DNA from: Phycisphaerales bacterium
GTDB taxonomy: Bacteria > Planctomycetota > Phycisphaerae > WQYP01
Assembly: GCA_027451365.1 (NCBI GenBank)
Contig: DAIDJN010000025.1
Coordinates: 1-45,097, forward strand
Direction of reading: 5' to 3'
Length of the DNA stretch: 45,097 bases
A program made the translations under genes and the position numbers. The notes beneath the pieces were generated by a model. It ran no database searches. It had not been told where the DNA came from and saw nothing but the letters and a program-made list of their open reading frames with translations. Below, piece after piece: positions 64 through 41,112 of the stretch. Each line of letters begins with the position of its first letter. The first letter of the stretch is position 1.

Positions 64-141
64 GAAACTCTTCAACAATCAAAGAATCAAAATTTACACC
101 GCTAGAAAATTCCCGCCAGATGGGGTTCGCGGGACGTTTAC
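64..141 (+). mobile_element. IS66-family right-end remnant (copy 1)
   Basis: 64-141 aligns ungapped to 3933-4010 (64/78 identical by hand count). The reverse complement of the end reads GTAAACGTCCCGCGAACCCCATCT, matching the GTAA-initiated terminal inverted repeats of IS66 elements. The second copy lies just downstream of an IS66 tnpC fragment. Confidence 0.65.
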
Positions 142-159
142 GAATATTGGCCGTTGAGA

Positions 160-188
160 TTGCGTTCTGTCAATATGTTTGTAATAAT
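160..188 (+). promoter_or_regulatory. Putative sigma70 promoter for the OLD gene (possibly leaderless transcript)
   Basis: TTGCGT (160-165), 17 nt, AATAAT (183-188) preceded by TGn. ATG at 195 with no Shine-Dalgarno. Confidence 0.35.
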
Positions 189-194
189 TACCGC

Positions 195-2267
195 ATGAAA
201 TTACTAACGGTAGAAGTGAGCAATTATAAATCGGTGCGCCGATCTAATCCCTTTAATATCGGGGATATTACCTGCCTTGTTGGAAAAAATGAGGCTGGGA
301 AAACGGCCTTGCTTGAGGCACTCTATAGGCTTAACCCAGTCGTCCCTCAAGATGCCAAGTTTGACGTAACTGATGACTATCCGCGATCCGATGTTACCGA
401 CTACGAACATGGGATTGAGACCAAGAAACTCCAACCAGCGACAGTGGTAAAAGCGGTTTTTGCTCTTGACGTGCAGACTGACCTAAGGGAAGTGTCGGAA
501 AAATTCGGTGATTCGGTAATTCCCGCCGATGGGGAAACATCGACACCAACACTGACACTTTCCAGAGGTTACGCGAATAAATTGTATTACGATATTACTA
601 TCGATGAATCCGCCGCAGTCAAGGCACTTGTAGTTAATGCCCAACTTCCACAACAGATTGGTGATGAGGCGGCAAGAAAAACTACACTGAAGGAACTTGC
701 GGATTACCTATCGCAACAAAGCGAGAGGCAGGTAAAGGAATATACCGAGGCTAATTCAAAAGCACAAACCATTGCTGATGCAACCCAGAAGGCGAAGGCG
801 GTGGATACGGCAAAGGCACTCGCGGAAACAGAAGGCACAAAACAATTGCGGGGGCTATTAACTGAAGTGTTAAAAGTTGGGATCAGAGAACATATTTGGG
901 ATCAATTTCTGAAGGTTAAGGTTCCGAAATTCCTGTACTTCGATGAGTACTATCAGATGGAAGGTGCTGTTAATCTTGAAAAGCTTAAAGAACGGCTGGC
1001 GAATCCCGGGCAGTTACTGCCACCTGATCGACCAATGTTGGGGCTAATCGATCTTGCCCGGCTTAATATTGACCAATTGATTTCACCGGACCGAACCCAA
1101 TCGCTCATCAATAAGCTAGAGGGTGCGTCCAATCACCTATCGAGACAGGTTCTAAAATATTGGTCACAGAATAAACACATTCAGCTTCAATTTGACGTTC
1201 GGACAGCGCTTCCAAATGATCCACCTGGGATGCAACAGGGTCACAACCTTTGGGGAAAGGTTTACGATTCGGCACATCAAGTTAGCACGGCATTGGGGGT
1301 GCGTTCGCGGGGCTTCGTTTGGTTCTTCTCCTTTCTGGCATGGTATTCGCAGCAACGCAAAACGCAGGAACGACTAATCCTGTTACTGGATGAACCTGGC
1401 TTATTTCTCCACGCAAGTGCACAGGACGACTTCCTTCGTTATATAGAAGCAGAGTTAAAGGATCATCAGGTTATCTATACTACGCACTCGCCATTTCTTG
1501 TCGACGCAAAACATTTTGATCGAGTACGCATCGTAGAAGACAAGAGTATGGAAACGGAAAAACAATTGTCGCCTGACGAACAAGGAACGAAGGTGTCTAC
1601 CGATATACTCCACGTTAGCAAAGGAACATTGTTCCCATTACAAGGAGCGCTTGGTTATGAAATTGCGCAAACGTTATTCATTGGGCCAAACAGCTTAATC
1701 GTGGAGGGTGTGTCGGATTTAATGTATTTACAGACGATGTCGTCTCTTTTAAGTGCAATGGGTCGAGAGAGTTTGCGAAAAGAGTGGGTGATAACCCCGG
1801 TTGGCGGAGCGGACAAAGTGCCTACGTTTGCGGCGCTCATTGGCATTCAAGCGGGTATGAATGTTGCGACCCTTATCGATTTCAAAACAAAGGATCGGCA
1901 GAGTATTGAAAATCTCTACAAGGAAAAACTGCTCAATAAAACACATGTATTAACCTTTCACAATTTCACTGGCACATCAGAAGCTGACATTGAGGATATG
2001 TTTGAGCCGGACTTTTATTTGGGTCTAGTGAATAACGAATACAATAAAGAAATTTCGATGCCGTTAAATGTTGGCCAACTTCCAGAGGTGGGTCATCGGA
2101 TCATCCCACGTATTGAGACGTTGTTAAAAAAATCAGACATTGCACTTAATCACTATAGACCGGCCAGATATTTTGCCGACAATCTTTCTAAGCTTGAGGT
2201 TGCGTTGTCAACAGTAACACTAGATAGATTTGAGCAAGCGTTTATTGCTTTGAATAAACTGCTATAA
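195..2267 (+). CDS. OLD-family ATP-dependent nuclease (ABC/AAA_15-21 ATPase + TOPRIM)
   Basis: Start MKLLTVEVSNYKS at ATG 195. Walker A GKNEAGKT, signature-like SRG, Walker B LLLLDEPG, H-loop YTTHSP, TOPRIM LIVEGVSD, later LID and EADIED acidic motifs. Visibly AT-richer than the core block. Confidence 0.88.
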   Translation: MKLLTVEVSNYKSVRRSNPFNIGDITCLVGKNEAGKTALLEALYRLNPVVPQDAKFDVTDDYPRSDVTDYEHGIETKKLQPATVVKAVFALDVQTDLREVSEKFGDSVIPADGETSTPTLTLSRGYANKLYYDITIDESAAVKALVVNAQLPQQIGDEAARKTTLKELADYLSQQSERQVKEYTEANSKAQTIADATQKAKAVDTAKALAETEGTKQLRGLLTEVLKVGIREHIWDQFLKVKVPKFLYFDEYYQMEGAVNLEKLKERLANPGQLLPPDRPMLGLIDLARLNIDQLISPDRTQSLINKLEGASNHLSRQVLKYWSQNKHIQLQFDVRTALPNDPPGMQQGHNLWGKVYDSAHQVSTALGVRSRGFVWFFSFLAWYSQQRKTQERLILLLDEPGLFLHASAQDDFLRYIEAELKDHQVIYTTHSPFLVDAKHFDRVRIVEDKSMETEKQLSPDEQGTKVSTDILHVSKGTLFPLQGALGYEIAQTLFIGPNSLIVEGVSDLMYLQTMSSLLSAMGRESLRKEWVITPVGGADKVPTFAALIGIQAGMNVATLIDFKTKDRQSIENLYKEKLLNKTHVLTFHNFTGTSEADIEDMFEPDFYLGLVNNEYNKEISMPLNVGQLPEVGHRIIPRIETLLKKSDIALNHYRPARYFADNLSKLEVALSTVTLDRFEQAFIALNKLL

Positions 2268-2477
2268 TTCCTGTTTATTTGTTGTTGGTTTCTCCTTCGG
2301 TTTAGGTCCCATCACCAAAACCGCGTCCGAATATACGCCGATCATTTACACCAATCCGGCTGCTAACTGGTACATCCGCCCCGGCCACCCAATAAAAGAT
2401 ATATGGACGTTGCGTGGCTATACACCACCGCGAGCAGATTCAATCCAGCCATGGCCCGACAAGCCAAAGAGGGTGTG

Positions 2478-2809
2478 GGTGAGGGGACCACCACCGAACG
2501 GCGTTATTACATCAGCAGCCTGCCGGGCTGTAATGCCAAACGTATGGCCGAATGCCTGCGGGGCGACGGGGGTCTGAAAATTGGCCTGCATTGGATACTG
2601 GACGTGGTATTTCGGGAGGACGAATGCCGCATCCGTAAGGGGTAAGGGGCGGAAAAATTCTGTCGGCTAAGCGGGTTCGACCTGAACCAGCACAACAAGG
2701 AAAGCAGCACGAAAGCAATGAGCTTCCATCGCAAACGCAAGCGTTCTGGCAGAAACATGGGGTATTTGCTCTAACCCCTGCTCTCTTGATTCTACATGCG
2801 ATTGCCATG
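2478..2809 (+). pseudogene. ISAs1-family transposase C-terminal fragment with right inverted repeat
   Basis: ERRYYISSL...LHWILDVVFREDECRIRKG, in-frame TAA at 2643-2645, catalytic HWGVEN decayed to DGGLKI. Ends in GATTCTACATGCGATTGCCATG (2788-2809), homologous to the inverted repeat at 40256-40277. Confidence 0.9.
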
Positions 2810-2965
2810 GCCAAGTGGGATAGCGGAAGCAATTGGCAGATTGAATCGGGCGGTCGGCTATGCCACCGAAGCGGGATTTTAATCATCTCTTGCAATTACA
2901 TCGAAGCTGCATTATTTTCGAGAAGTTAAATAAATGGGTTTCGCAATCCTTTTTTGGAGTCAAGC

Positions 2966-3433
2966 ATGTCGGAAAGCCCGACCGAAGTTTCCCTAAAACG
3001 AATGGCTGAAGAAATTTTCAGTTTTACAAAGGAATCGTGGCTTTCGCGCCTGGCTGCAAGGCATCAGGGCGAGGACCCGTTGTCCGAGACTCAGTTTCTG
3101 ACGCTGGATTTCCTGGCCACCTCCGACGTGCCGCAGACAGTGGGCGACATTCAACGCAATATTCATGTTGTGCCGGCGCAAATGTCACGGATTATCCGTT
3201 CGCTGGAAGGAGACTTTGACAGTCCGTTAATCCGCTGCGAACTAAATCAAACCGACAAACGCCGAATTGATGTGTTTATGACCGACGATGGACGGAAGGC
3301 CTATTCAGACTTTTTGAACGATCGATTGGAACGAACCTGTCGGTTGCTGGCCGGAATTTCCGAGCGCGATCGCGCGGAATTTGTCCGCATTTGTGCGGTC
3401 ATGCGGACGGCCACCAAAGTGGCCTCGACCTGA
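2966..3433 (+). CDS. MarR-family transcriptional regulator
   Basis: LSETQFLTL, HTH TVGDIQRNIHVVPAQMSRIIRSLE, wing motif TDKRRIDVFMTDDG. GGAG 6 nt upstream of ATG 2966. Confidence 0.9.
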   Translation: MSESPTEVSLKRMAEEIFSFTKESWLSRLAARHQGEDPLSETQFLTLDFLATSDVPQTVGDIQRNIHVVPAQMSRIIRSLEGDFDSPLIRCELNQTDKRRIDVFMTDDGRKAYSDFLNDRLERTCRLLAGISERDRAEFVRICAVMRTATKVAST

Positions 3434-3625
3434 AGCAATCCACAACTGAGTTGAACTTCGCATTTCCAGAACATCCAGAAACAGCGAGAGCAATTCACGG
3501 CTGCGAGTCTGTCGGTAGTAAGCGTGAATGCCAAGAAAAAGGAACTGGTGGGAACTTTAAAAATCCCGAAGTCGCCTGCCGCCGAAAGCCCGACACGGTT
3601 CATACCTATGACTTCGTCCACGTGT

Positions 3626-4010
3626 CTGTGCGTGGGCTCACCCCGCGGCGGCCAGAACGCCGCCGTCCTGGCCAACAATACCAGCACCTTCCGACGCCAC
3701 CAGTTACGCCCCCCAGTCGTGCTTGATCCAACTGTTGGCCAACCTACCGACTACTTCAAAGGACCAGCTTGCCAGTTGGCTGCCGGACGCCTGGAAACTA
3801 AGACAATTGGGGCAGCTGGCGGAAAACAAAAGTATCCTGCCGACGCGGCAGGAATAACAGCCTGTTTTTCATACATGCCTACGATCCAAATTCAGAAAAA
3901 AACAGAATAGACGCAATTTGTAATGCGGAATCGAAACCGTTGAACAAACAAATAATCCGAATTTACGCCGCCGGAAAATTCCCGCCAGATGGGGCTTGAG
4001 GGACCTTTAC
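3626..4010 (+). mobile_element. IS66-family remnant: frameshifted tnpC C-terminus plus right end (copy 2)
   Basis: LCVGSPRGGQNAAVLANNTSTFRRHQL, then a +1 shift in the C6 run (3709-3714) into LIQLLANLPTTSKDQLASWLPDAWK, stop 3855-3857. This matches the IS66 TnpC C-terminal pattern (LF.G..RGG..AAIL.SL..TCRRH..DPQ.YL..LL.NLP......WLPD.W). The terminus reverse-complements to GTAAAGGTCCC. Confidence 0.8.
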
Positions 4011-4026
4011 GATAAAAAGAGCCGAA

Positions 4027-4629
4027 TCAGGCTTTACCACCCGTTAATTTGCCACCCAGCGAGCCGACACTGGTGGACGGGTTGTTTTCGAGAATTTTCT
4101 CCCATTCGTCGGGCGAAAAGTGGCGGGCGGATTCCAGTGCGGATGGCAATTTTTTGAATTCCGTTCCTCCGCAGATTTTCTCTTGTACCCAAGCGTTATT
4201 GCAAACATCCGGCTCGCAATTGCATTGTTTCCGCAACATTTGCTTACACTTTTCGGTCGTGATGCGATCTGTCGGCCACGCACCGAGGTGTGCAAGTACC
4301 CAGGCATCAAAGCAGGGATTTGAAAGAGCCACATGAAATTTTTTCTGGCGGCATCGCTCTAGGGTCGTGGTCAACAAGGTGCGTTCGGCGTCTCCCTCGG
4401 CATCAAATACGCACCAGATTTCATCGTAGGAACGGTCCTTGGACAATTTTTCGACAGTTTCCAACACTTTTACATGCTTGCCACCGTGGGTTAATTCCAC
4501 ACTAACCGACAACCGCTCGCGTGCAAATTTTAAGCTTTTGAGGGCATTGAAATAGCTTAGCTCAAAATTACCTTCACAGACAATAAGAATCGGGCTGCGT
4601 GTTTGGATAACCCGTTTTCTGGGCCGCAA
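4027..4629 (-). CDS. rloB: RloB-family protein (TOPRIM-like)
   Basis: ILIVCEG, YF, DEIWCVFD, ALSNPCFDAWVLAH and C-terminal NPST motifs typical of RloB. TTG start 2 nt after the ATPase stop. Confidence 0.85.
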   Translation of the reverse strand: MRPRKRVIQTRSPILIVCEGNFELSYFNALKSLKFARERLSVSVELTHGGKHVKVLETVEKLSKDRSYDEIWCVFDAEGDAERTLLTTTLERCRQKKFHVALSNPCFDAWVLAHLGAWPTDRITTEKCKQMLRKQCNCEPDVCNNAWVQEKICGGTEFKKLPSALESARHFSPDEWEKILENNPSTSVGSLGGKLTGGKA

Positions 4630-4631
4630 AC

Positions 4632-5999
4632 TTATCCATCGCGCCCGCCCAAAGCCGGACTGGTCGCCGGCAGCGGCCGCCCCGACAGCGTTGGCCCAAA
4701 GCTCCCAATACCTCCATAGCGGCCCACAAGGTAGTTCTTCTCGAACGCTTCAGAGCTTCGGGTATATTTATCGCGATGGAAATTGCCAAGGCTGAAAAGA
4801 TCAGTCTGGCCTGATGGCGATTTCTCCATAAGCCAAATCTGGTCTTTGCGAAATAATTCGCGGGACATCAGTTGGCTGTGATGCGTGGTAAAAATAAATT
4901 GGGCGCCATTTTTATTATTATTATTATTGGGGTTTTGAAACAAAGCAACTAATTTTTCCGCCAACAACGGGTGTATATTAGAACCAAATTCATCTATCAC
5001 AACCGTTGCGCCATCGCGCACGGCCTGAAAGATATACCAAAACAATTGAGCGAATAACTGCGTACCAAGAGATTCGTCCGAAAAGCCAAATTCAATGCTC
5101 TTTCCGTCCGTCCGGAGGTGCTCGGAAAGCAATTGGACCGGCCGACGTAACCGTGCAAATTGCAGGGCAACTTCGCCAGCGCGATCACCATGATGCGGAG
5201 CAAGTGTTTGACGCAGTTGTTCAATTTCCTGTATCGTCGGATCCGCAGGAGTCTGAACGCGAAATCCATTTATTCCAATGTCTGCATCGCGAATCGTCTC
5301 GATCAGTTGATCGCGAAATAAGCGATCCTCTTGCACGCTCTTCGCCAGATAATTTGGCGGCGCGCCGCCAATCTGGAAAGACGCTATTCGCAAATTTTGT
5401 GACAGGAAGGTGAGAATGTCCCGCAGAAGCGGGACATTGAGATTCGCTCCGGAAGATAAGATTAATGCATTATCGCGCGTTAGCTTGGGGACGTTCTCTT
5501 TGGCCACCCGATCAAATTCGTTTCCAAACTCCACATTGGCGGCATCCGCAACCTTTTGCTCGTGCCGCTGGAACAATACCCGCGGGTCACCAGACTTCAA
5601 TTCCTCCTCCAGTTTTTCAGCCACAATTCGCTCTGAAACCGCGGAAAAGCCGTAGCGAAAGACCCGTCCTCGCATGACAAAAGCAAGCTCGAACCGGCAC
5701 GGCCTTGTCTCCCACGCGGGATCAAGCCGATAAATTTCTATTCCTGGAATTAGACCGCCAGGATTCAAACTAATTGCTGAGAACTGAATGATATTCAGGA
5801 AAACCTGGAACGCCCGCACTAGATTGCTTTTCCCAGATGCGTTATGCCCAAAAATGGCCGCCGTGCGTACTACAGATGGAAATCCGGCCACCGGTGCAAA
5901 AAAGTTCTCCGGCTTGTTCTGTTCCTTACCCTTGATCAGGCTAAGGGTTTGGGCTTCCCCAAAAGAGCGAAAATTCTCAACGGTAAACTCGTATATCAT
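4632..5999 (-). CDS. rloA: RloA-like AAA_21 (ABC-type) ATPase
   Basis: MIYEFTVENFRSF, Walker A GHNASGKS, ESLGT signature, Walker B VVIDEFGSNIHP, AQFIFTTH, FRKDQIW, YLVGRYGG. Directly upstream of rloB. Confidence 0.88.
   Translation of the reverse strand: MIYEFTVENFRSFGEAQTLSLIKGKEQNKPENFFAPVAGFPSVVRTAAIFGHNASGKSNLVRAFQVFLNIIQFSAISLNPGGLIPGIEIYRLDPAWETRPCRFELAFVMRGRVFRYGFSAVSERIVAEKLEEELKSGDPRVLFQRHEQKVADAANVEFGNEFDRVAKENVPKLTRDNALILSSGANLNVPLLRDILTFLSQNLRIASFQIGGAPPNYLAKSVQEDRLFRDQLIETIRDADIGINGFRVQTPADPTIQEIEQLRQTLAPHHGDRAGEVALQFARLRRPVQLLSEHLRTDGKSIEFGFSDESLGTQLFAQLFWYIFQAVRDGATVVIDEFGSNIHPLLAEKLVALFQNPNNNNNKNGAQFIFTTHHSQLMSRELFRKDQIWLMEKSPSGQTDLFSLGNFHRDKYTRSSEAFEKNYLVGRYGGIGSFGPTLSGRPLPATSPALGGRDG
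4912..4928. repeat. (TTA)5 trinucleotide repeat encoding poly-Asn in the ATPase
   Basis: ttattattattattatt gives PNNNNNKNG on the minus strand. Confidence 0.8.
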
Positions 6000-6065
6000 A
6001 AATTATCCGGCCAACTGGACCGACTATAACCGCTGGCCTTTCCATGGCCGAAAGCCCTCTGGGTC

Positions 6066-6093
6066 ATCTTATCCATATCGAATCAAATTGCAA
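6066..6093 (-). promoter_or_regulatory. Putative sigma70 promoter for rloAB
   Basis: Minus strand TTGCAA (6093-6088), 16 nt, TAAGAT (6071-6066) in an AT-rich intergenic stretch. Overlaps the TTGCA-N7-TGCAA inverted repeat at 6088-6104. Confidence 0.3.
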
Positions 6094-6231
6094 ATTTTAT
6101 GCAACTTAAATCGAAAAGTACTAAGTTATAGCCTAAAATCTAGACGATAATACATATTATTCGTCTTTGTAAAAAAAACGCGGTCTTTTTCAGACTGCCC
6201 CAAACCGTCGTCTTATTTGGCAATATGTCGC

Positions 6232-7587
6232 CTACTGCGGATACAGGCGCAGGTTCCGGAATTCAAATGGAACGCGCACCACGGTACGGCTTGAGGGGGC
6301 CAGCCAAGACAGCCGAACGGGCGGGCCGAAATGGATAACCGGCTTCGGCGCAGCCTTGGTCTGCGGCGCGGCGAAAGGCACACCAGATATGCTCGTAAAT
6401 CCTCCGGGCGCCCCAAAAGAGTTGTCCGTCGGAGGCTTGGTTGTATAGACCATTTTTCCCAGACCGGTGGTATGGCAACCGCAGTCACTTTCATAGTCTG
6501 AAAAATAGGCGTGATTCTGAGCATCATACACAATCGGCACCTTGCCGCTGAAAATCACCTGTTCGTCATGATCAGTTATTTTTTTCTGGGCGGCGGTCAT
6601 CGCCTGCCGATTAAACCCAATGGGTGTAACGGCAAAGTGCAAGGTGTAGCGCTTTTTGGCCGCTTCCCAAAGCAGCGGAAAAAATTCCACATTGCACCCA
6701 AGTATCTCGACGGTGTGCGGCGTTTGCAGCGTGCCGGCCGAAAAGGCTATATGCCGGTGGCTATGCAGAAATTCCATTGCCACAGAACCCTTTATCAGTT
6801 TAATCATATTAGAATCGCCCGACGGAGAGGCGATTTGGATTTGCAGGCTTTGCCGCCAAGTGCCAGCCGATGAAGACGATACATAGGAAAACATGCCGCC
6901 AGCCAGCCCTTTGGGCAGAAGCAACGATCGCCCATGATTGTCCAAGGCCCGCGCAATGCGCAGATGCCCCACCGAATAATGCTTGATGGCCGGAGGTATA
7001 AACATGCAGGCACTCAATTGAAGGCAGCCCTGCCGCACCACTTTCGCCGCATTAAAATTTATATTTCCCTGAAACGATGCCCCCGTCGGCTGGAAAAGAA
7101 TGGGCCCGGCACGCGACGCAAAATTGCCGATGATCATCGGGTTCTGCGCAACAGCGGCGACGTTGAGTTCGACCACACCTTTACCGCCAATCCATTGCCG
7201 ATCCAGCACCAGGCCTGACCGCCTGAGAAACAGTCGCATCGCCGACCAGAAATCGGCACGCGTCACATCGAAATTCATCGGCTGGTTCATAGCCGCCGCT
7301 TCAGCTTTCACCACCTGAAACTTTACGCCCCCCTTTTGGCACAACAATTGAAAAACTTTTTCCGCAGGCGTATTTTTCAGATGCAATGTGACGCGGTCTT
7401 GGCTCATTTCAGCCAGAATTCGCTTGGCCGCGGGTGTCCGATGCCCCTGAAGAACAACCGACAACCTTACCGGTTGGGATACAGGGTCTTGCCCGGCGAT
7501 TGCTGGCGAAAATCCACATACCGCCACGGCAAATCCCGATGCGAACGCCAGCGTCCGACCGATCGTTCGATTGATCTTGAGTTTCAT
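6232..7587 (-). CDS. Secreted hypothetical protein (paralog of 7621-9246)
   Basis: 451-aa ORF, SD GGGGAAAGGA, signal peptide ending AIA. STN-like segment VTLHLKNTPAEKVFQLLCQKGG, FWSAM, ALDNHGRSLL, C-terminal VPFEFRNLRL. Confidence 0.8.
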   Translation of the reverse strand: MKLKINRTIGRTLAFASGFAVAVCGFSPAIAGQDPVSQPVRLSVVLQGHRTPAAKRILAEMSQDRVTLHLKNTPAEKVFQLLCQKGGVKFQVVKAEAAAMNQPMNFDVTRADFWSAMRLFLRRSGLVLDRQWIGGKGVVELNVAAVAQNPMIIGNFASRAGPILFQPTGASFQGNINFNAAKVVRQGCLQLSACMFIPPAIKHYSVGHLRIARALDNHGRSLLLPKGLAGGMFSYVSSSSAGTWRQSLQIQIASPSGDSNMIKLIKGSVAMEFLHSHRHIAFSAGTLQTPHTVEILGCNVEFFPLLWEAAKKRYTLHFAVTPIGFNRQAMTAAQKKITDHDEQVIFSGKVPIVYDAQNHAYFSDYESDCGCHTTGLGKMVYTTKPPTDNSFGAPGGFTSISGVPFAAPQTKAAPKPVIHFGPPVRLSWLAPSSRTVVRVPFEFRNLRLYPQ

Positions 7588-7620
7588 GTGGTTCCTTTCC
7601 CCGGCGGTGGCCGGGCAAAA

Positions 7621-9246
7621 TTAGTGCAACGGCGGCAGTGGCACATTGTGAAACACGAATGGAACGGTAACCCGCGTTTGAAATGCCGGCAGCGTCCACA
7701 CCAGGCTTGCAGGCACAGGCAGCGGTTTGCCGGATTTAATTCGCTTCTTAAGCGCCGCAGTGGCAGCGACCGGAAGCGAACCACCTGACGGCATCGAAGG
7801 CGATTCGGCTGCAAGCAATTTTGCCTGCGCAGGCGAGGCCACGCGAATGACACAGGTTAAGGATGTTGGCGGCTGCCCATAATAGTCGGTGGAACTGTAG
7901 TCGGTGTAGCCGCCACCGTTGTTTATCTGTGCGACATAGCGCACATTTTTTGCACCGGAAAATACCAATCCTGCAGACTTCTGAAGCGCGTTTAATACCG
8001 CAAGTTGAGCAACGCTGAGAGTATGCGGCTTTGAACCAAGAAATTGCCGCGTCTGAAGCAGCATGGCAATCGTATAGGCGTTCATGGCGGCGTGATATAT
8101 GGGGCGTCCGAATTCAATATCAAAACCGGCAAAAACCGCGGAGCGGCCGGAACGGTCGGCCAGATTTTTAATGCGCAGTTTCTGATTCCCCACGCCCAGA
8201 TTCCAGAAAAGTTTTCCCCGCGCCAGTTTCACTCTCTGACCGATCTTTTTGGGAGCATTAAGAAACAAATTCATTGAATAGGACATCTGATGATCGTTGG
8301 AATAGGCGATGGTTGTGTTCATTTGGGCCAACTGTGCCGCAAGATTTGCCGCCATATTGGGCGGCAGATTGGCTGGCATTCCAAACGGCGCGTTGAGCAG
8401 ATTCATCCCATTGTTATCAATCACCTGTGACATCGACACTTTTAACTGACCGGGTGGCCGTGGCGCACGCGGTTCATCAAAAATTCGGAGGTTAAAATCA
8501 ATGTTATTAGAAGAAAACCCATTAGCCGGCTGTTTGGTCAATGCAAAATTCCGGCTGAAGGATAGCCCCTCCACCGCGAACAAATACCGCCCGGAAATGA
8601 AATAAGGCTCGGCTGGCCAAAGCAGTCCATCGGAGGGGCTGATCTCGATGGCACCGCCCTGCTTACGCCCGGCATAGCCGAGTGTCCAGCCAGATTGATG
8701 CAGAATGGCTTCCATGGCCTGCCAGAAGGGTACCCTCGTCAGGTGAAGGGTAACGGTGGGCGCTTTGGCGGGATTGGATTTAAGCCAATGATGCGGCAGG
8801 CCGGCCTGATTGCACAGGTCATTGACCGCACTACGCAAAGTGGCATGTGTCAGACTCAGGGATACCAGAGTGGGCAGCGTCGCCTCGGCAATTGACATGC
8901 GTTCCAACAGTGCGTTGATCCGGTGACGCAATACACGCGAATGGCTGGTGCGGGCCATTCGTTGCAACACTGGAATCCATGAAGAATCCAATGTTTTAAG
9001 TCTGTTTTCCGCTGCCGTCTTTTCCGCCGCATTGCTGGAAGCGGCCTGCTGAATCCAGAGCCTGCATTGGGCAATTTGCGCAGCTGACTTTTTGGCTGCG
9101 GGCAGCGCAGTGGCCCGCGCCACGGCCACACTGCCAAGCGCCAGAAATACTCCGGCAATCACCAGCATTGCCGCCATACGGACCCGGCAAGTCGCGATCC
9201 GGAAAGAGCGACGGATCTTTATAGGTTTCATTTTCGATACGTGCAT
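7621..9246 (-). CDS. Secreted hypothetical protein (paralog of 6232-7587)
   Basis: SD GGGGAG 7 nt before ATG 9246, hydrophobic signal, HEAT-like helical N-region. VSLSLTHATLRSAVNDLCNQAG, FWQAM, VIDNNGMNLL, C-terminal VPFVFHNVPLP. Confidence 0.8.
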   Translation of the reverse strand: MHVSKMKPIKIRRSFRIATCRVRMAAMLVIAGVFLALGSVAVARATALPAAKKSAAQIAQCRLWIQQAASSNAAEKTAAENRLKTLDSSWIPVLQRMARTSHSRVLRHRINALLERMSIAEATLPTLVSLSLTHATLRSAVNDLCNQAGLPHHWLKSNPAKAPTVTLHLTRVPFWQAMEAILHQSGWTLGYAGRKQGGAIEISPSDGLLWPAEPYFISGRYLFAVEGLSFSRNFALTKQPANGFSSNNIDFNLRIFDEPRAPRPPGQLKVSMSQVIDNNGMNLLNAPFGMPANLPPNMAANLAAQLAQMNTTIAYSNDHQMSYSMNLFLNAPKKIGQRVKLARGKLFWNLGVGNQKLRIKNLADRSGRSAVFAGFDIEFGRPIYHAAMNAYTIAMLLQTRQFLGSKPHTLSVAQLAVLNALQKSAGLVFSGAKNVRYVAQINNGGGYTDYSSTDYYGQPPTSLTCVIRVASPAQAKLLAAESPSMPSGGSLPVAATAALKKRIKSGKPLPVPASLVWTLPAFQTRVTVPFVFHNVPLPPLH

Positions 9247-9337
9247 GGGCGATCTCCCCAAAGGGATAAAAGTGTCACCAGCGAACGCGTCCGCACCGAG
9301 CTTGGATTTTGACCATTAGGCAGCAAACTCACTGATT

Positions 9338-17636: not shown

Positions 17637-18716
17637 ATGATTCTGGCTGGAATTGATGAAGCTGGCTATGGCCCGCTGCTTGGACCGCTGGTGGTCTGTG
17701 CCAGCGCGTTCGCCGTTCCCGGCGATATGCAGGATCAGATACAACACGGCGACTTTACGGTGGCTGAAACTTTGTGGCCGTTGCTGAAACGTGCGGTGGC
17801 CCGTAAGGGACCGCTGCGTGATGGCCGCCTTGTTGTAGCAGACAGCAAACTGGTCCACGCAATGACGGGTGGCATCGGCCTGCTGGAACGAACCGTTCTG
17901 GCCATGATTCTTCAGCCTGCCGCGGCCAGAACCGTGGAAGAAATGCCTTTCACTACCGCGCAATTGCTTACCTCATTGGGCGTTCCGCTTCCAAATGGCG
18001 TGCCGCCACTTGCTTCGCCGGCCCGGCCGGAAGGACCAGTCGTCCGCGACTTTCAATTTTTTCCGCCGCAGCCGTGGTATGGCCATGCTGCAGCGGGCGC
18101 CCCAGCCACAGTGCCCGCCTTTACCTCCCGGGCGGGTCTGGGCATTGGAGCATCCATGTTGGCTGGCGCGCTGGCGGCGGCGGACATTTCTCTGGCGGCA
18201 CTCTGGGCAATTGTCGTTGATGAAGATTTATTTAACCGACGGGTGGCCGCAACCGGGAACAAAGCCACTACGCTAGCCTCGGTGACTTTTACACATATCG
18301 CCCTGCTTGCAGACAGATTTGCCGGCCGCGGCCTGCTGCTGGTGGTAGATAAACAGGGTGGCCGCACACATTATGTACACGACCTTTTGCAAACTTTTCC
18401 CGACTGGGCACTCAAGATACTTAAAGAAACGCCCGAAGAAAGCAGTTATTTTCTGCATCATGGACAGCGGCAAATGCTGCTGAGCTTTCGTGAAAAATCA
18501 GAGTTGACTTCTTTTGCAACCGCGCTGGCCAGTATGACCGCCAAATATCTGCGCGAACTGCTGATGGCCCACTTTAACGCATGGTTCTGTGCGCGAATTC
18601 CCGGTCTTAAACCAACGGCGGGTTATTATCAGGATGGAAAACGCTGGCTTGAAGATGTCGCGCCGCATTTGGCGGCATTGAATATAAGCCACGACCAGTT
18701 AGTTCGGATAAAATAG
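17637..18716 (+). CDS. rnhB: Ribonuclease HII-like protein (long form)
   Basis: AGIDEAGYGPLLGPLVV, ADSK, VVDKQGG, ALASMTAKYLRE, TAGYY. Large Pro/Ala-rich insertion. Confidence 0.75.
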   Translation: MILAGIDEAGYGPLLGPLVVCASAFAVPGDMQDQIQHGDFTVAETLWPLLKRAVARKGPLRDGRLVVADSKLVHAMTGGIGLLERTVLAMILQPAAARTVEEMPFTTAQLLTSLGVPLPNGVPPLASPARPEGPVVRDFQFFPPQPWYGHAAAGAPATVPAFTSRAGLGIGASMLAGALAAADISLAALWAIVVDEDLFNRRVAATGNKATTLASVTFTHIALLADRFAGRGLLLVVDKQGGRTHYVHDLLQTFPDWALKILKETPEESSYFLHHGQRQMLLSFREKSELTSFATALASMTAKYLRELLMAHFNAWFCARIPGLKPTAGYYQDGKRWLEDVAPHLAALNISHDQLVRIK

Positions 18717-21644: not shown

Positions 21645-23270
21645 TTATCCGGTGGCGTGGCCCAGGATATAGCTGGCCGGCCCCAAGACAAGTGCTGCGG
21701 GAAACAGGCCAAGCGCAAATTCCGCAGTCACCAGGACAATAAAAATGCCGCGTTCCGCGGCGGTCAGCCGGGTGAAATGGTGATATTCCGGCCGCACCGC
21801 GCCCAGAAAAATCCGTTCCATGGCCCAGTAGAGAGCCGCCGCCAGAAGTGCAAATCCCAGAGCGGAAGCAAAGGCCGCAAAAATGAAGCTGTGGTTATGA
21901 AACCACCCCGCGGATGTCGGTGACATATCATGGTGAGCCGCGCTGAAATTGGCCATAGCGGCGAACAGTTCCGCCGGAAAGAGGCTCAATCCCGGACAGG
22001 CCATGCCAGCCAGAAAGCCGACGAGTGCCACCGTGAAAAATTCCGGTGATAGCGAGGCAATGCCACCCAGGCTATTGAGGTCCCGGCCGGCAGTTCGCCG
22101 TGCGAGCACATGACTGCTCCAAAGCAGAAGCATAAGCGTGAGGGTATCACCGGAGGCAAAAAGCTCGATCGCCTTAATACCGGCGTGCTCCAACGTGGCA
22201 AACGCCAGCAGGACCATGGCGGCCTGGCTGGTCAGCCAGTAGGCAATAAGTCTGCGCAAATCGCTTTGCGCCAGCGCACAAAAGGCGGCATAAATCAGGC
22301 CGGCAATTCCCCAGGCCAACAGGCCACTCCGATGTTCCGCCAACTGTTGGGCAAATAATGGCCCGACCAGACGCAGGAGCGTATAGACCGCCAGAAGAAA
22401 ATTCCCCCCTACCGCCAGTCCCAAAGCGGATGCGGTACCTTCGGCCATTGTATCCGGCAACCAAATGTGCCCACCGGGCAAGCCCATCCGCACGGCCAAC
22501 GCCAGCATTACCAGCAGGAAAGCGACCCATGGGCCACGGCCGCCGATGAGGTTATCAAACCGACGGATGTCAAACGCGCCAAGTCGTGAAAAAGCAAGCG
22601 TTGCGTGAGTAAGGGCAGGCTCCGCGGCGTGCACCGGGGGACGGATGGCACTCGCAGCCGCGACCGCTGCCACTGAATGGGGAGGATTCAAAAGCCCGGC
22701 ATCTTTGCATTGCAGCCATAAAAGCATGACCGCAATGAACATCGCCATGGCACCAAGTGTAGCGATCATGGCATATTTCATGGCCGCGGCACGGCGCGAA
22801 GGACCGCCCCACAGACCGAACAGAAAATAGCCAGGCAAAATGCTTAGCGCACCAAAACCGGCAAACAGCATCATATCCATGCTGCATATTGCCCCGACCA
22901 GGCACCCGCTCAACACCAGCAGAAGGACATACCAGGTCTTGGTCTGCTCATCAATTACATAGCTGGCCAAGGCGGCAATGAATGCCAGTCCACAGAGCGC
23001 CAGCAGGGTCAGGGCGGTCAGGCCGTCGGCACCCACGCTGTAGCGAAGGCCGCCGAACCAATGAGCGCTTTGCATTAACTGCCAGCCTGCGTGCCAGTTC
23101 AGCAATCGCGCCAGTGCCACGCAGATCGCCAACATGCCGGCAAAAACCGCCAGAGCGGAATTGCGGATCAGCCGGGTGCGTGCCGCCGGCAACAATGCAA
23201 TAATTGCCGCGCCGATAAACGGCAAAAAAATCAGGCAGGTCAAAATTGAACTATATGCAAAAAAATGCAA
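21645..23270 (-). CDS. NuoM-like proton-conducting membrane subunit, degenerate
   Basis: GGAG SD before TTG. LIFLPFIGA, GADGL, YFLFGLWG, AAAMKY, HIWLPD, AQSDLRRLIAY, RD..SLGG, CPG...FPAE follow the NuoM scaffold, but key charged residues are substituted. Confidence 0.85.
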   Translation of the reverse strand: MHFFAYSSILTCLIFLPFIGAAIIALLPAARTRLIRNSALAVFAGMLAICVALARLLNWHAGWQLMQSAHWFGGLRYSVGADGLTALTLLALCGLAFIAALASYVIDEQTKTWYVLLLVLSGCLVGAICSMDMMLFAGFGALSILPGYFLFGLWGGPSRRAAAMKYAMIATLGAMAMFIAVMLLWLQCKDAGLLNPPHSVAAVAAASAIRPPVHAAEPALTHATLAFSRLGAFDIRRFDNLIGGRGPWVAFLLVMLALAVRMGLPGGHIWLPDTMAEGTASALGLAVGGNFLLAVYTLLRLVGPLFAQQLAEHRSGLLAWGIAGLIYAAFCALAQSDLRRLIAYWLTSQAAMVLLAFATLEHAGIKAIELFASGDTLTLMLLLWSSHVLARRTAGRDLNSLGGIASLSPEFFTVALVGFLAGMACPGLSLFPAELFAAMANFSAAHHDMSPTSAGWFHNHSFIFAAFASALGFALLAAALYWAMERIFLGAVRPEYHHFTRLTAAERGIFIVLVTAEFALGLFPAALVLGPASYILGHATG

Positions 23271-23316
23271 TGCGCATCTCCAAAAATCAGAGCCGACACC
23301 AATTACTGCCCGACCA

Positions 23317-25422
23317 TCAGGTATAACTTACGGCCAGTAGAAGGATGAGCAGCGCAGCGGCCGCGAGAATAAAAAAAATTGCCAGCGGAAAAAACCACCG
23401 CCATTTGACCGGTGCCCGGAAATTACCTCCCGCTGGTGACAACAAGCCACCCCCAGACGCCACAACACTGGTCAAACGCCAGTCCAGGGTTGCAAAAACA
23501 ATGGATATCAGCCGGACAATCAACCCGATGGAAACCACCAGCCATCCGATGACCCAACGATCGGCCGCCCCTAGAACGGCGGCCAGGCCGGATATGATCA
23601 CGCGGCTCACGGCACCGTAGAGGTCATAGAAATAGAGTTCGGCATCCAGCCATCGATAAATAAGATTAGGACCAGGCAGGCGGCGAATTTTTTCCGCGCG
23701 TCCGAGGCCGTTGGAATAAATCGCCACAACCACGGCAATGGCCATTGGCCAGGCCCAGGCGAGACGGTTGGCCATTTGAACGGCAAATACACTATGGGCC
23801 CCGGTGGTATAGGGCGGAAACAGGAGGTCGGGCCGTGATTTGGCTAACAGGCCGGAAATGCCAAGAAGGGGCTGGCCGCACATAAGAGAACCCAGCGCTA
23901 ATAGAACCAAAGGAAATAACCGGACGGCCGATTCGCCACCCGGTGCGGCTCCGGTGCCGCGCCACGCTCCGCCAAAAATGAGCCACCACCAGCGAGCCAG
24001 ACCAAAAAGGATCAGATAGCACGCCACCAAGGGCAGCCAGTACAGCAGATTCCCATATTCCCCGATTTGGGCACCAATATGGCGCAGATTTTCAAAGCCG
24101 GCGACCAGCATGTTCGGCTGGCCAAACAGCAACAGCCCCATTGCCGCGCTGCATACAAGTAACGAGGCGGCGGCGGTAACCGGCAGACTGCGCCACAGGC
24201 CGCCGAGCCGTCGGAAATCCGACTCCCCGCCCGTGCAATGGAGCACGGTACCGGCGCAAATAAACAGACAGGTTCCGCTTAAGGCCAGATAAATTGATTC
24301 ATACAGGCCTGCGACATAAGATCCTGTTACCAGGAACAGGATTGACAAGCCCGCCTGTGCGCTGACCAGCCACATCAGACCGCGTTTGATATCACTCGCA
24401 GTCAGGGAGCACAAGGCCCCAAAGCAGAGCGTAGCGGCGGCGGCCATGGCGGCCAGCAGGCGCACATCCACGTTAAGCAGTGGAATCAACCGTGCGGTCA
24501 AATAAGGCCCGGCGACGGCAATCAATAATCCGGCGGTCAGCGCGCCGGTAGGCGTGGCGGCTGGTGTGGTTTCCACCGCCCAGGTATGAAGCGGAAATTG
24601 CGCCGCTTTTCCGGCAATTCCCAATACCATCAGAATTCCGGACCAATCCCACCATCCCAGTCCCATTAATCGTGAAGGACCATCGGATTGCAACACCCCA
24701 ACAACACCGCTTGCGTGCAGAGCCACACCAAGGCTTGCCATGATGGGGGCAACTCCATTGACCTGCGGCAACGCAAGGACCGCAGGATTGCAATGCACCA
24801 GCAGGAGGCAGATTCCCAGAAGAAAAAATGCGTCGCCCATCAGTGGCAGCGGAATCATGCGGCGGACCGAAGCTTCGCATGGTCCCCGCCATGCCGCACC
24901 CGCCATACCCCAGATTCCCACAGTGGCCAAAACACCGGCGGCGAACAATTCCAGCACACTGGCCGCGACCACCATTGAAAACATGCCAAATACGAAAAGG
25001 TTTGACCAGGCAAACCAACCGGGCCGGATCCGCCGGTCGTCCACTATTCCGATCACATAAATGCCGACCAGCAGGGCAATCAGGGCGGTCAGAAGAAAGG
25101 TGACGAGCGTCAATGAATCGACTGCCACCCCCATCCGCAGACTATTGGGATATTCGCGTGCCGCCGCGGACGTGTGTATAGTCAGCCATGTCCAGAGTAT
25201 CGGCTTGGCCGCCCCCAGGTGGCCCATCTGCCCCATATGACCTCTGGCCAGCAATTTGCGGGCGACCGTCCAGAGAGCCAACCCCAGACTGGTCGAATAG
25301 CCCCCGATGGCCAGGATAGCGGCGTGACGTGGATTGCGCCCTAAGGGTGTCAATACCAGCGCCACAACCAGAAGTGGCACAAGGGTGGCAATCGCCAGCC
25401 AGATGTCAGAGTTGTGTAACAA
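23317..25422 (-). CDS. NuoL-like proton-conducting membrane subunit, degenerate
   Basis: VDSLT, NLFVFGM, MGD, GKAAQFPLHTW, TPTGAL, AGPYLTAR, SDIKR, LFICAGTV, ESDFRRLGGL, and a long C-terminal amphipathic helix (LYFYDLY...DRWVIG) follow the NuoL scaffold. Confidence 0.85.
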   Translation of the reverse strand: MLHNSDIWLAIATLVPLLVVALVLTPLGRNPRHAAILAIGGYSTSLGLALWTVARKLLARGHMGQMGHLGAAKPILWTWLTIHTSAAAREYPNSLRMGVAVDSLTLVTFLLTALIALLVGIYVIGIVDDRRIRPGWFAWSNLFVFGMFSMVVAASVLELFAAGVLATVGIWGMAGAAWRGPCEASVRRMIPLPLMGDAFFLLGICLLLVHCNPAVLALPQVNGVAPIMASLGVALHASGVVGVLQSDGPSRLMGLGWWDWSGILMVLGIAGKAAQFPLHTWAVETTPAATPTGALTAGLLIAVAGPYLTARLIPLLNVDVRLLAAMAAAATLCFGALCSLTASDIKRGLMWLVSAQAGLSILFLVTGSYVAGLYESIYLALSGTCLFICAGTVLHCTGGESDFRRLGGLWRSLPVTAAASLLVCSAAMGLLLFGQPNMLVAGFENLRHIGAQIGEYGNLLYWLPLVACYLILFGLARWWWLIFGGAWRGTGAAPGGESAVRLFPLVLLALGSLMCGQPLLGISGLLAKSRPDLLFPPYTTGAHSVFAVQMANRLAWAWPMAIAVVVAIYSNGLGRAEKIRRLPGPNLIYRWLDAELYFYDLYGAVSRVIISGLAAVLGAADRWVIGWLVVSIGLIVRLISIVFATLDWRLTSVVASGGGLLSPAGGNFRAPVKWRWFFPLAIFFILAAAALLILLLAVSYT

Positions 25423-40255: not shown

Positions 40256-41112
40256 CAGGGCAATCGCATGTAGAATCAAGCGAGCAGGGTTTGGAGCAGG
40301 TAGCTGATGCTTCTGCCGCAACGCTTGCGTTTACGTCGGAGGCGCATGGCTTTCGTGCTGTTCTCCTTGTTGTGCTGGTTCATGGCAAACCTGCGTAGCC
40401 GACTGAAGTTTTCCGCCCCATACCCCTTGCGGATTCGGCATTCGTCCTCCCGAAATACCGCGTCCAGTATCCAGTGCAGACCATTTTCCACACCCCAGTG
40501 GCCCCGCACGCATTCGGCCATACGTTTAGCATCGGTGCCCGGCAGGCTGCTGATGTAATAACGCCGTTCGATGGTGGTCCCATCCCCGGGCAAAACTTTG
40601 CCGCAGGATATTGCCGTCCAGGCTTAGCAATTTAACATTGGTTTGCTCATGAAGGGTAGCGGTCCATTCGATTATCACCCGTTCAAGCTCCGAGGGGGTC
40701 AGAAGGGAGAAAATGCGACCGAAGGTATCATGCGAGGGTATTCCGCCGGGAAGTGTGAGCAAATCGCGGAAATCTTTCTGATAATCTTTGCAGAAATCCA
40801 GCACGTCCAGCCAACCCTCTGCGCCGCCAAGAACGGAGCAGACAGCCATGATAATAACTTCCGATAGAATATGAACCCGCTTGTGACGCAGCGAGTCAGT
40901 CACGGTTCCGGCTAAAGACAATAGTTCTCCGAAGGCTCGGTCTTCCATGACAAAGCTCCTGATGCAAGGGTCTGATTGTACAAATACCTTGCGCCGCCGC
41001 GCTGGCGCCAGATACACTCTGGCACAACGCCTATTAACCACATCGTTTTAAAAAGCGAAAATTCGCGAGCGCGAATTATTAGAGGAGCAGGATTCTAAAT
41101 GCGGTTGCCCCG
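40256..41112 (-). mobile_element. Internally deleted ISAs1-family element (857 bp) with both terminal inverted repeats
   Basis: CAGGGCAATCGCATGTAGAATC (40256-40277) versus reverse complement of 41091-41112, CGGGGCAACCGCATTTAGAATC (19/22). No target-site duplication visible. Confidence 0.9.
40276..40948 (-). pseudogene. ISAs1 transposase pseudogene (central deletion, frames out of register)
   Basis: N-part GAEGW...LPGGIPSHDTFGRIF...LSLDGNILRQSF is joined in a different frame to the C-part ERRYYISSL...RGHWGVENGLHWILD..FRED. Confidence 0.9.

Follow-up and report, generated by a model that had tools for sequence, protein, structure and literature searches.

A 45,097-nucleotide contig from a Phycisphaerales bacterium (DAIDJN010000025.1, assembly GCA_027451365.1; the whole stretch is hereafter the window) carries two adjacent genes, here designated nuoL2 and nuoM2, whose products (L2 and M2) resemble the antiporter-like subunits NuoL and NuoM of respiratory complex I but have lost most of the charged residues of the proton-translocating axis. 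Gene order and phylogeny show the pair to be, at the level of sequence, the remnant distal end of a second, headless Phycisphaerae complex I that has lost its redox core. The reading we favour, though tentatively, is that L2 and M2, with a further M-type subunit, form a proton-sealed, non-pumping, structural membrane module that works without complex I. In evolutionary terms, and with the same reserve, this predicted proton-dead NuoL-NuoM-NuoM pseudo-antiporter would have arisen several times in Phycisphaerae after core loss and be needed even in the absence of complex I, its intact ancestors having been 2M complexes that used the product of one nuoM twice. Ancestry and fold of such subunits were already known; what appears to be new is an axis-less, core-independent NuoL/NuoM pair. 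We found no literature on such a pair, though subscription papers or supplements may mention one.

A NuoL/NuoM-like pair with a replaced axis

Both genes lie on the minus strand, with nuoL2 (23317..25422; NuoL-like, 701 amino acids) ahead of nuoM2 (21645..23270; NuoM-like, 541 amino acids). Their frames are open and co-oriented, as a sequence-only reading of this DNA had described, and the 46-nucleotide spacer (23271..23316, minus strand) bears a GGAG 7 nucleotides ahead of the TTG start of nuoM2. That reading had also called the pair stand-alone, in agreement with a Pfam scan in which PF00361 matched these two genes and 0 of the 27 other window open reading frames (ORFs) scanned. The best NCBIfam models are NuoL for L2 and NuoM for M2, with both scores below the curated cut-offs (TIGR01974, 141.8 versus 407.5 bits; TIGR01972, 207.7 versus 263.8). 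Mrp models give the pair scores far lower than those from Nuo models, and the MrpB-G partners that would mark MrpA/MrpD were not found with it. AlphaFold2 models gave a mean predicted local distance difference test score (pLDDT) of 83.0 for L2, whose best Foldseek matches are NuoL/NdhF chains, and of 85.4 for M2, which superposes on Escherichia coli NuoM (3rko_M) with Z 49.8 and a root-mean-square deviation of 1.8 over 481 residues. Both models have an antiporter-like fold with broken helices, and L2 has the lateral helix; because such confident models match NuoL/NuoM structures, we regard the fold as whole in both proteins. The pair shares fold, helix order, L-then-M gene order and lateral helix with complex I NuoL (ND5) and NuoM (ND4). 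It differs in its replaced axis, its sub-threshold scores, the absence of a core of its own and its retention where complex I was not found.

An alignment made with MAFFT against E. coli K-12 NuoL and NuoM was used to read the axis residues. Seven of the nine in NuoL are replaced in L2 (E144>V164, R175>L194, H254>A297, H334>E375, H338>L379, K342>G383 and K399>L439; codons spanning 24106..24933, minus strand), leaving D178 and K229. Six of the seven in NuoM are replaced in M2 (E144>A141, K234>R261, H248>M275, K265>L292, H322>Q349 and H348>D375; codons spanning 22146..22850, minus strand), where E407 is retained along with K173 and H241. Every substitution that the sequence-only reading had made out by eye was reproduced, as was its claim that D178 and K229 alone survive in L2; for M2 it was right that E407 is kept and wrong that nothing else is. 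Activity in E. coli is abolished by E144A or E144Q in either subunit and by mutation of the lysine in transmembrane helix 7 (TM7) (PMC3046159, extract), and coupled pumping by L2-M2 is therefore very unlikely.

One contig of run X2, from an assembly that looks independent, covers this stretch without a gap (the four runs holding the DNA are from one study and may include the source sample), and 0 of 27 listed variants fall in axis codons; the pair is therefore not an assembly error. All four DNA runs in which the stretch was found are mine drainage metagenomes from that one study (pH not given), a setting that fits the steep pH gradient guessed from the sequence. The sequencing-run search listed no RNA runs holding it, and a promoter scan returned 0 sigma-70-like sites, with terminator matches near chance.

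Descent from a second, headless complex I

PF00361 is matched nine times in the window's genome (G000, 93% complete), namely by canonical L, M and N, three hydrogenase-4 (Hyf)-type members, one dabB and the window pair. Canonical nuoLM, which the sequence-only reading had proposed to look for, lie in a nuoJKLMN operon on contig C81, and their L1 has all axis residues; the three hydrogenase-4-like members are on C54, in a cluster (G000:C54:20899-31267) whose large subunit lacks the CxxC motif, and dabB is on C70, with dabBA thus on a contig other than the window's. NuoA, B, C, D, H, I, J, K and N are each single-copy and scattered, so L2-M2 have no NuoA-K and N partner set of their own, and the single NuoH and NuoI score higher with first-complex queries. 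A profile search for cryptic J2, K2 and N2 recovered canonical copies only, and the one NuoK/MrpC-like gene sits inside the nuo operon. We rejected a weak K2 match on C30, which on reading showed no NuoK likeness and presumably belongs to a microcompartment shell protein. Complex I genes in this genome are spread over six contigs (C10, C58, C63, C76, C77 and C81), and on C58 there is another nuoEF-like set, in which G is short.

Two complex I systems occur in relatives. The second, as seen in G032 and G036, is a nuoI-A-B-C-D-H-J-K-L-M-N operon without nuoEFG; within the family it is reduced to JKLMN or scattered. Each locus has one nuoM2, intact operons included. Axis-less sequences (15 rows of L2; 14 of M2, with the fragmentary G023 row left out) form one clade in each tree, with a Shimodaira-Hasegawa-like approximate likelihood ratio of 100. 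The clade has the intact G012 copy as its sister and is nested among intact second-operon copies. Their branching mirrors that of the canonical subunits and thus fits vertical descent.

We then compared the state of the axis with the presence of the second core; all genomes are drafts, and absence means not found. M2 was matched in 43 of the 45 family genomes, answering a call in the sequence-only reading for orthologous pairs, whereas a second NuoD occurs in nine and a second NuoH in seven, with an intact axis in all that were checked. Neither was found in the 31 genomes of the main axis-less clade, which spans eight genera, nor in three partly degenerate genomes independent of it (G011, G017 and G044). 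Among the 31 main-clade L2 rows (30 genomes and one extra contig; G055 was not fetched), R175, H254, H338, K342 and K399 are kept in none, E144 in 6, H334 in 5, D178 in 16 and K229 in 14. Main-clade M2 rows keep none of E144, H248, K265, H322 and H348, and carry K234R in 30/30, while intact rows (12 L2, 13 M2) retain all but one axis residue. NuoN2 surviving beside an affected pair has lost axis residues too (L051:6000-7568 in G015; L073:4440-6188 in G011). Canonical N1 of G013 and G024 carries H305N.

The same pattern recurs beyond the family. An M2 query against 103 genomes of a sister family gave a match at E<=1e-60 in 65. No more than one of seven M2 axis residues is missing from any of the 56 that carry NuoH2, and none of these is axis-less, whereas six of the nine without NuoH2 have lost at least three; G106, among those six, is unpublished, related genomes do not count as independent, and copies that have diverged further may be missed in these counts. 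Among 155 database proteins, a set whose query profile favours axis-less proteins, 35 have lost at least four axis residues. Of these, 22 do not belong to the 13 main-clade rows, and on a FastTree tree (29 near-duplicate rows and short rows left out) the pattern needs seven changes. P0096 and P0122 are axis-less NuoM paralogs outside the main clade, and a member of the P0096 cluster is labelled Candidatus Acidiferrales. Within the family the axis was lost at least twice: the hypothesis that main and partial groups share one origin was rejected (p=0.0005) by an approximately unbiased test with the axis columns dropped. Where the second core is missing, L2 and M2 persist and lose the axis, and this correlation is repeated.

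Selection, and persistence without complex I

To ask whether the pair is maintained, we computed ratios of nonsynonymous to synonymous change (dN/dS; Nei-Gojobori, own script) as genus medians over pairs with dS 0.05-1.5. Medians were 0.125-0.237 for L2 and 0.04-0.245 for M2, compared with 0.024-0.204 for L1 and 0.067-0.137 for M1. The pair is under purifying selection, looser than on the canonical copies and far from neutral, with M2 more constrained than L2. These values bear on the possibility that L2-M2 is a functionless, slowly decaying relic. Long branches, change faster than in the canonical copies and the ragged look of some sister-family orphans (no selection test was made on them) speak for decay. 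Against it, every within-genus dN/dS computed for the pair in the main clade is below 0.25, frames are open across eight genera in which synonymous sites are near saturation, and M2 is kept almost family-wide. Decay is largely refuted for the main clade and we give it very little credence overall, which bears out the sequence-only view of a repurposed module rather than a decaying duplicate.

Constraint on M2 is strongest in genus g6 (G006, G020 and G049-G052; five genomes 91-93% complete, one 65%), with a median dN/dS of 0.04. The L2-M2 pair occurs in 6/6 g6 genomes, and searches there for complex I found NuoH in 0/6, NuoD in 0/6, M1 in 0/6, NuoA in 0/2 and NuoB and NuoF over cut-off in 0/5. 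No g6 genome is closed, but the family has its complex I genes dispersed over several distinct loci, so that all of them being missed through incomplete assembly is unlikely. A nuoJ-nuoK piece in one g6 genome (G050, contig C30) was treated as misbinned, because the proteins compared are 100% identical to those of G003, a genome of a different genus, and G050 already possesses the flanking gene in a copy of its own. Two further contigs, G045:C309 and G047:C71, are likely misbinned, each adding an extra L2-M2 locus; the G045 copy is 87-88% identical to the window.

The g6 genomes do have an oxidase: COX1 and an ActC-like gene are present in 6/6, with no complex I found, and in 42/45 and 43/45 family genomes, respectively. 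In the window's genome the two share one operon with c-type cytochromes, in agreement with the occurrence of alternative complex III in the class (PMC11266412, extract).

Another conceivable partner is a hydrogenase-4-like complex without nickel ligands, of which the pair would be an accessory arm. A hyfE-like gene occurs in 27 of 31 main-clade genomes (5/6 in g6) and in 2 of the 14 others. Kin share genes, however, so the count of 27 is one event; the gene was not found in G054 (94% complete), G011, G017 or G044, and the complex already has three antiporter-like subunits. We consider this arrangement improbable.

A possible sealed module and its rivals

A feature overlooked in the sequence-only reading is the lateral (HL) helix of L2 (residues 595-658; 23449..23640, minus strand), continuous in the model and extended by a 26-residue insert of the kind found in 2M complex I of Nitrospira and Ca. 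Manganitrophaceae. The lateral-helix segment measures 84 residues in the window L2 and 58 in this genome's canonical NuoL, and 83-92 in 43 L2 rows (a proline-rich tail counted in g6) versus 57-59 in 36 L1 rows. The insert has been postulated to span a fourth pumping subunit, and occurs in operons with one nuoM too (PMC9040806, extract). Unlike 2M complexes, which are thought to pump more protons and whose hallmark is two nuoM genes in an operon with the redox core, L2-M2 loci have a lost axis, one nuoM2 and no core. The intact headless second operons of G032, G036 and G038 (L066, L067 and L064) have the 2M-type insert yet a single nuoM gene, and these complexes may use their single NuoM twice.

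The insert is a repeat with one acidic residue per unit. D621 (23560..23562, minus strand) is D in 30/30 axis-less rows with cover and in 12/12 intact rows; D647 (23482..23484, minus strand) is D or E in 30/30 axis-less rows with cover and D in 12/12 intact rows. From this conservation, D621 likely grips M2 and D647 likely grips a second M-type subunit. M2 K173 and H241 are kept in 30/30 axis-less rows, and D621 aligns two residues from NuoL D563, which we take to contact NuoM K173/H241, although no confirming passage was found. The distal end behaves differently. The terminal helix TM16 (residues 677-700; 23323..23394, minus strand) is present in the window and most genera, but is replaced by a proline-rich tail in 6/6 g6 rows and missing from G010, whose L2 stops three residues past the second acid. 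The Q-x-G-R motif before TM16, in 12/12 intact L2, is absent from axis-less rows. The segment past the second acid is, judging from these rows, dispensable; in structural terms, two M-binding sites would be kept and the N-side anchor lost. A complex prediction of two M2 copies (residues 6-505) scored 0.00 in two runs and weighs neither way.

These surfaces also bear on the replacement arm for complex I raised in the sequence-only reading. In this scheme the pair would take the place of NuoL1 on the canonical complex I (N1-M1-M2-L2) as a low-gear arm moving fewer protons against a steep pH gradient. The long helix could reach across two M subunits, TM16 is retained in most genera, the runs holding the DNA come from mine drainage, and canonical M1 is altered in 22/22 main-clade rows. 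The M1 change occurs in the intact G012 too, however. Both g6 and G010 lack TM16, the helix that would dock on the NuoN/J/K side, and the Q-x-G-R motif is gone from axis-less rows. In E. coli, the enzyme stops rather than becoming uncoupled when E144 or K234 is lost (PMC3046159, extract). Above all, g6 keeps the pair under strong selection with none of the complex I subunits searched for, and the replacement arm is accordingly disfavoured; it is doubtful, if a little less so than the hydrogenase-linked arm. Canonical NuoM1 itself (G000:C81:35703-37400, L004) lacks H248, H348 and two residues before K265, L1 being unchanged; this is a modified working complex I, possibly adapted to acid.

A sealed structural module could have arisen as follows. 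Ancestors had the second operon without nuoEFG, its NuoL bearing the long 2M-type helix; where the core is missing, L2 and M2 persist and shed the axis, as the repeated correlation shows. Isolated Nqo12 and Nqo13 conduct protons down a pH gradient, and K385I or K235M blocks this, the sites being the terminal lysine of Nqo12 and the middle lysine of Nqo13 (PMC11496545, extract). An orphaned intact pair would therefore leak, and selection would favour its sealing, all the more strongly in mine drainage. This would account for the loss of the axis whenever the core is lost, leaving the retention of the pair to another cause. We take the two blocking lysines to correspond to M K265 and L K399, so that the natural changes here would fall on leak-blocking positions. 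The long helix would still clamp two M-type subunits, M2 and one more, the latter probably a further M2 copy in genomes lacking any other NuoM. What the clamped module does is a guess, unlikely if taken by itself: a structural job, most likely packing on an alternative complex III-oxidase assembly through the newly conserved TM1-TM2 face of M2.

Newly fixed M2 residues lie in TM1-TM2 (RLIR, G45) and in TM10-TM11 (W345, Q349, W384). The tryptophans W345 and W384 (22119..22238, minus strand) are specific to the axis-less clade, replacing S and F of intact copies; they are the majority residue in 8/8 axis-less genera and invariant in the 14-row alignment. Such residues can be read in another way, as parts of a repurposed conduit or binding protein for a non-proton substrate such as CO2, O2, a cation, a lipid or quinone. 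Core residues newly fixed across genera (R261 in 30/30, Q349 in 30/31, W345, W384, H/Q387 and E485) and the higher constraint on M2 are in its favour. The cyanobacterial NdhF3/NdhD3 of NDH-1MS offer a precedent: they too are a paralogous distal L/M pair in which channel charges have become non-polar, replacements proposed to form a CO2 channel in NdhF3 (PMC6981117, extract), and L2 likewise has non-polar replacements in the lateral channel. However, NdhF3 keeps its ion pairs, NdhD3 still carries protons and the two are mounted on the NDH core together with CupA, whereas L2 here lacks E144 and R175, the M2 axis is lost, and both subunits are affected and core-independent. No CupA or CupB was seen among the scanned window ORFs (Pfam); no genome-wide search was made. 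DabB of the DAB2 carbon pumps is similarly NuoL-like, apart from complex I and without E144, yet it keeps and requires a His/Lys pathway and pairs with DabA (PMC13144422, extract), whereas L2 has lost that pathway and has no adjacent dabA. NdhF3 and DabB are the nearest functional parallels, but each keeps part of the proton machinery and an enzyme partner, and no enzyme partner gene adjoins the pair among the matches listed. Moreover, most axis positions hold many different residues, as expected of loss rather than a new site, and bulky tryptophans suggest filling. We regard a conduit as unlikely, albeit the most credible of the alternatives.

Several observations weigh against the sealed structural module. 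The evolutionary rate of L2 is about double that of L1; E144 persists in 6/31 L2 rows and E407 in 10/31 M2 rows; and the window M2 keeps or gains the buried acids E369, D375 and E434, not common to other genera, while L2 retains D178 and K229 and carries E375, so that sealing may be incomplete in the window's genus. The three acids were placed with model helices; an earlier approximate count of 9 buried charges in this M2, based on E. coli helix limits, was not relied on. The FastTree tree places the main and partial groups together. No conserved dedicated neighbour gene emerged as a partner across loci among the matches listed, where only ordinary synteny was seen, and the near-universality of ActC and COX1 in the family means that their presence does not single them out. 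Finally, M2 went unmatched at E<=1e-60 in 38 of 103 sister-family genomes, and the job is therefore not required class-wide. On balance we still place the sealed structural role first, followed in order by the conduit, the replacement arm, the hydrogenase accessory and decay.

Elsewhere in the window, a 359-aa ORF (17637-18716, plus strand) matches only the first 31 positions of an RNase HII family, and its 377-aa homologue sits upstream of the intact L2 in G012. Positions 120-9261, of lower guanine-cytosine content, hold AAA ATPase genes and an RloB-like gene and are likely a defence island, within which two long ORFs (6232-7587 and 7621-9261) have no Pfam match. A transposase at 40276-41041 (minus strand) appears as two overlapping ORFs (DDE_Tnp_1 and an associated domain).

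Ion pumping is taken to be the purpose of the L, M and N subunits, and a strongly selected pair that lacks the pumping residues and outlives both complex I enzymes points to another function of the fold. Databases name several axis-less proteins as ordinary NuoM, and pumping capacity is therefore over-called in these genomes. The graded series from intact with a core, through partly and fully lost, to lost without complex I is a natural mutant set that separates pumping from assembly residues, tests the need to seal orphan modules and tests the role of the 26-residue insert in operons with one nuoM. If our reading is true, evolution would have isolated in these bacteria a second, proton-free job of the antiporter-like subunits of complex I.

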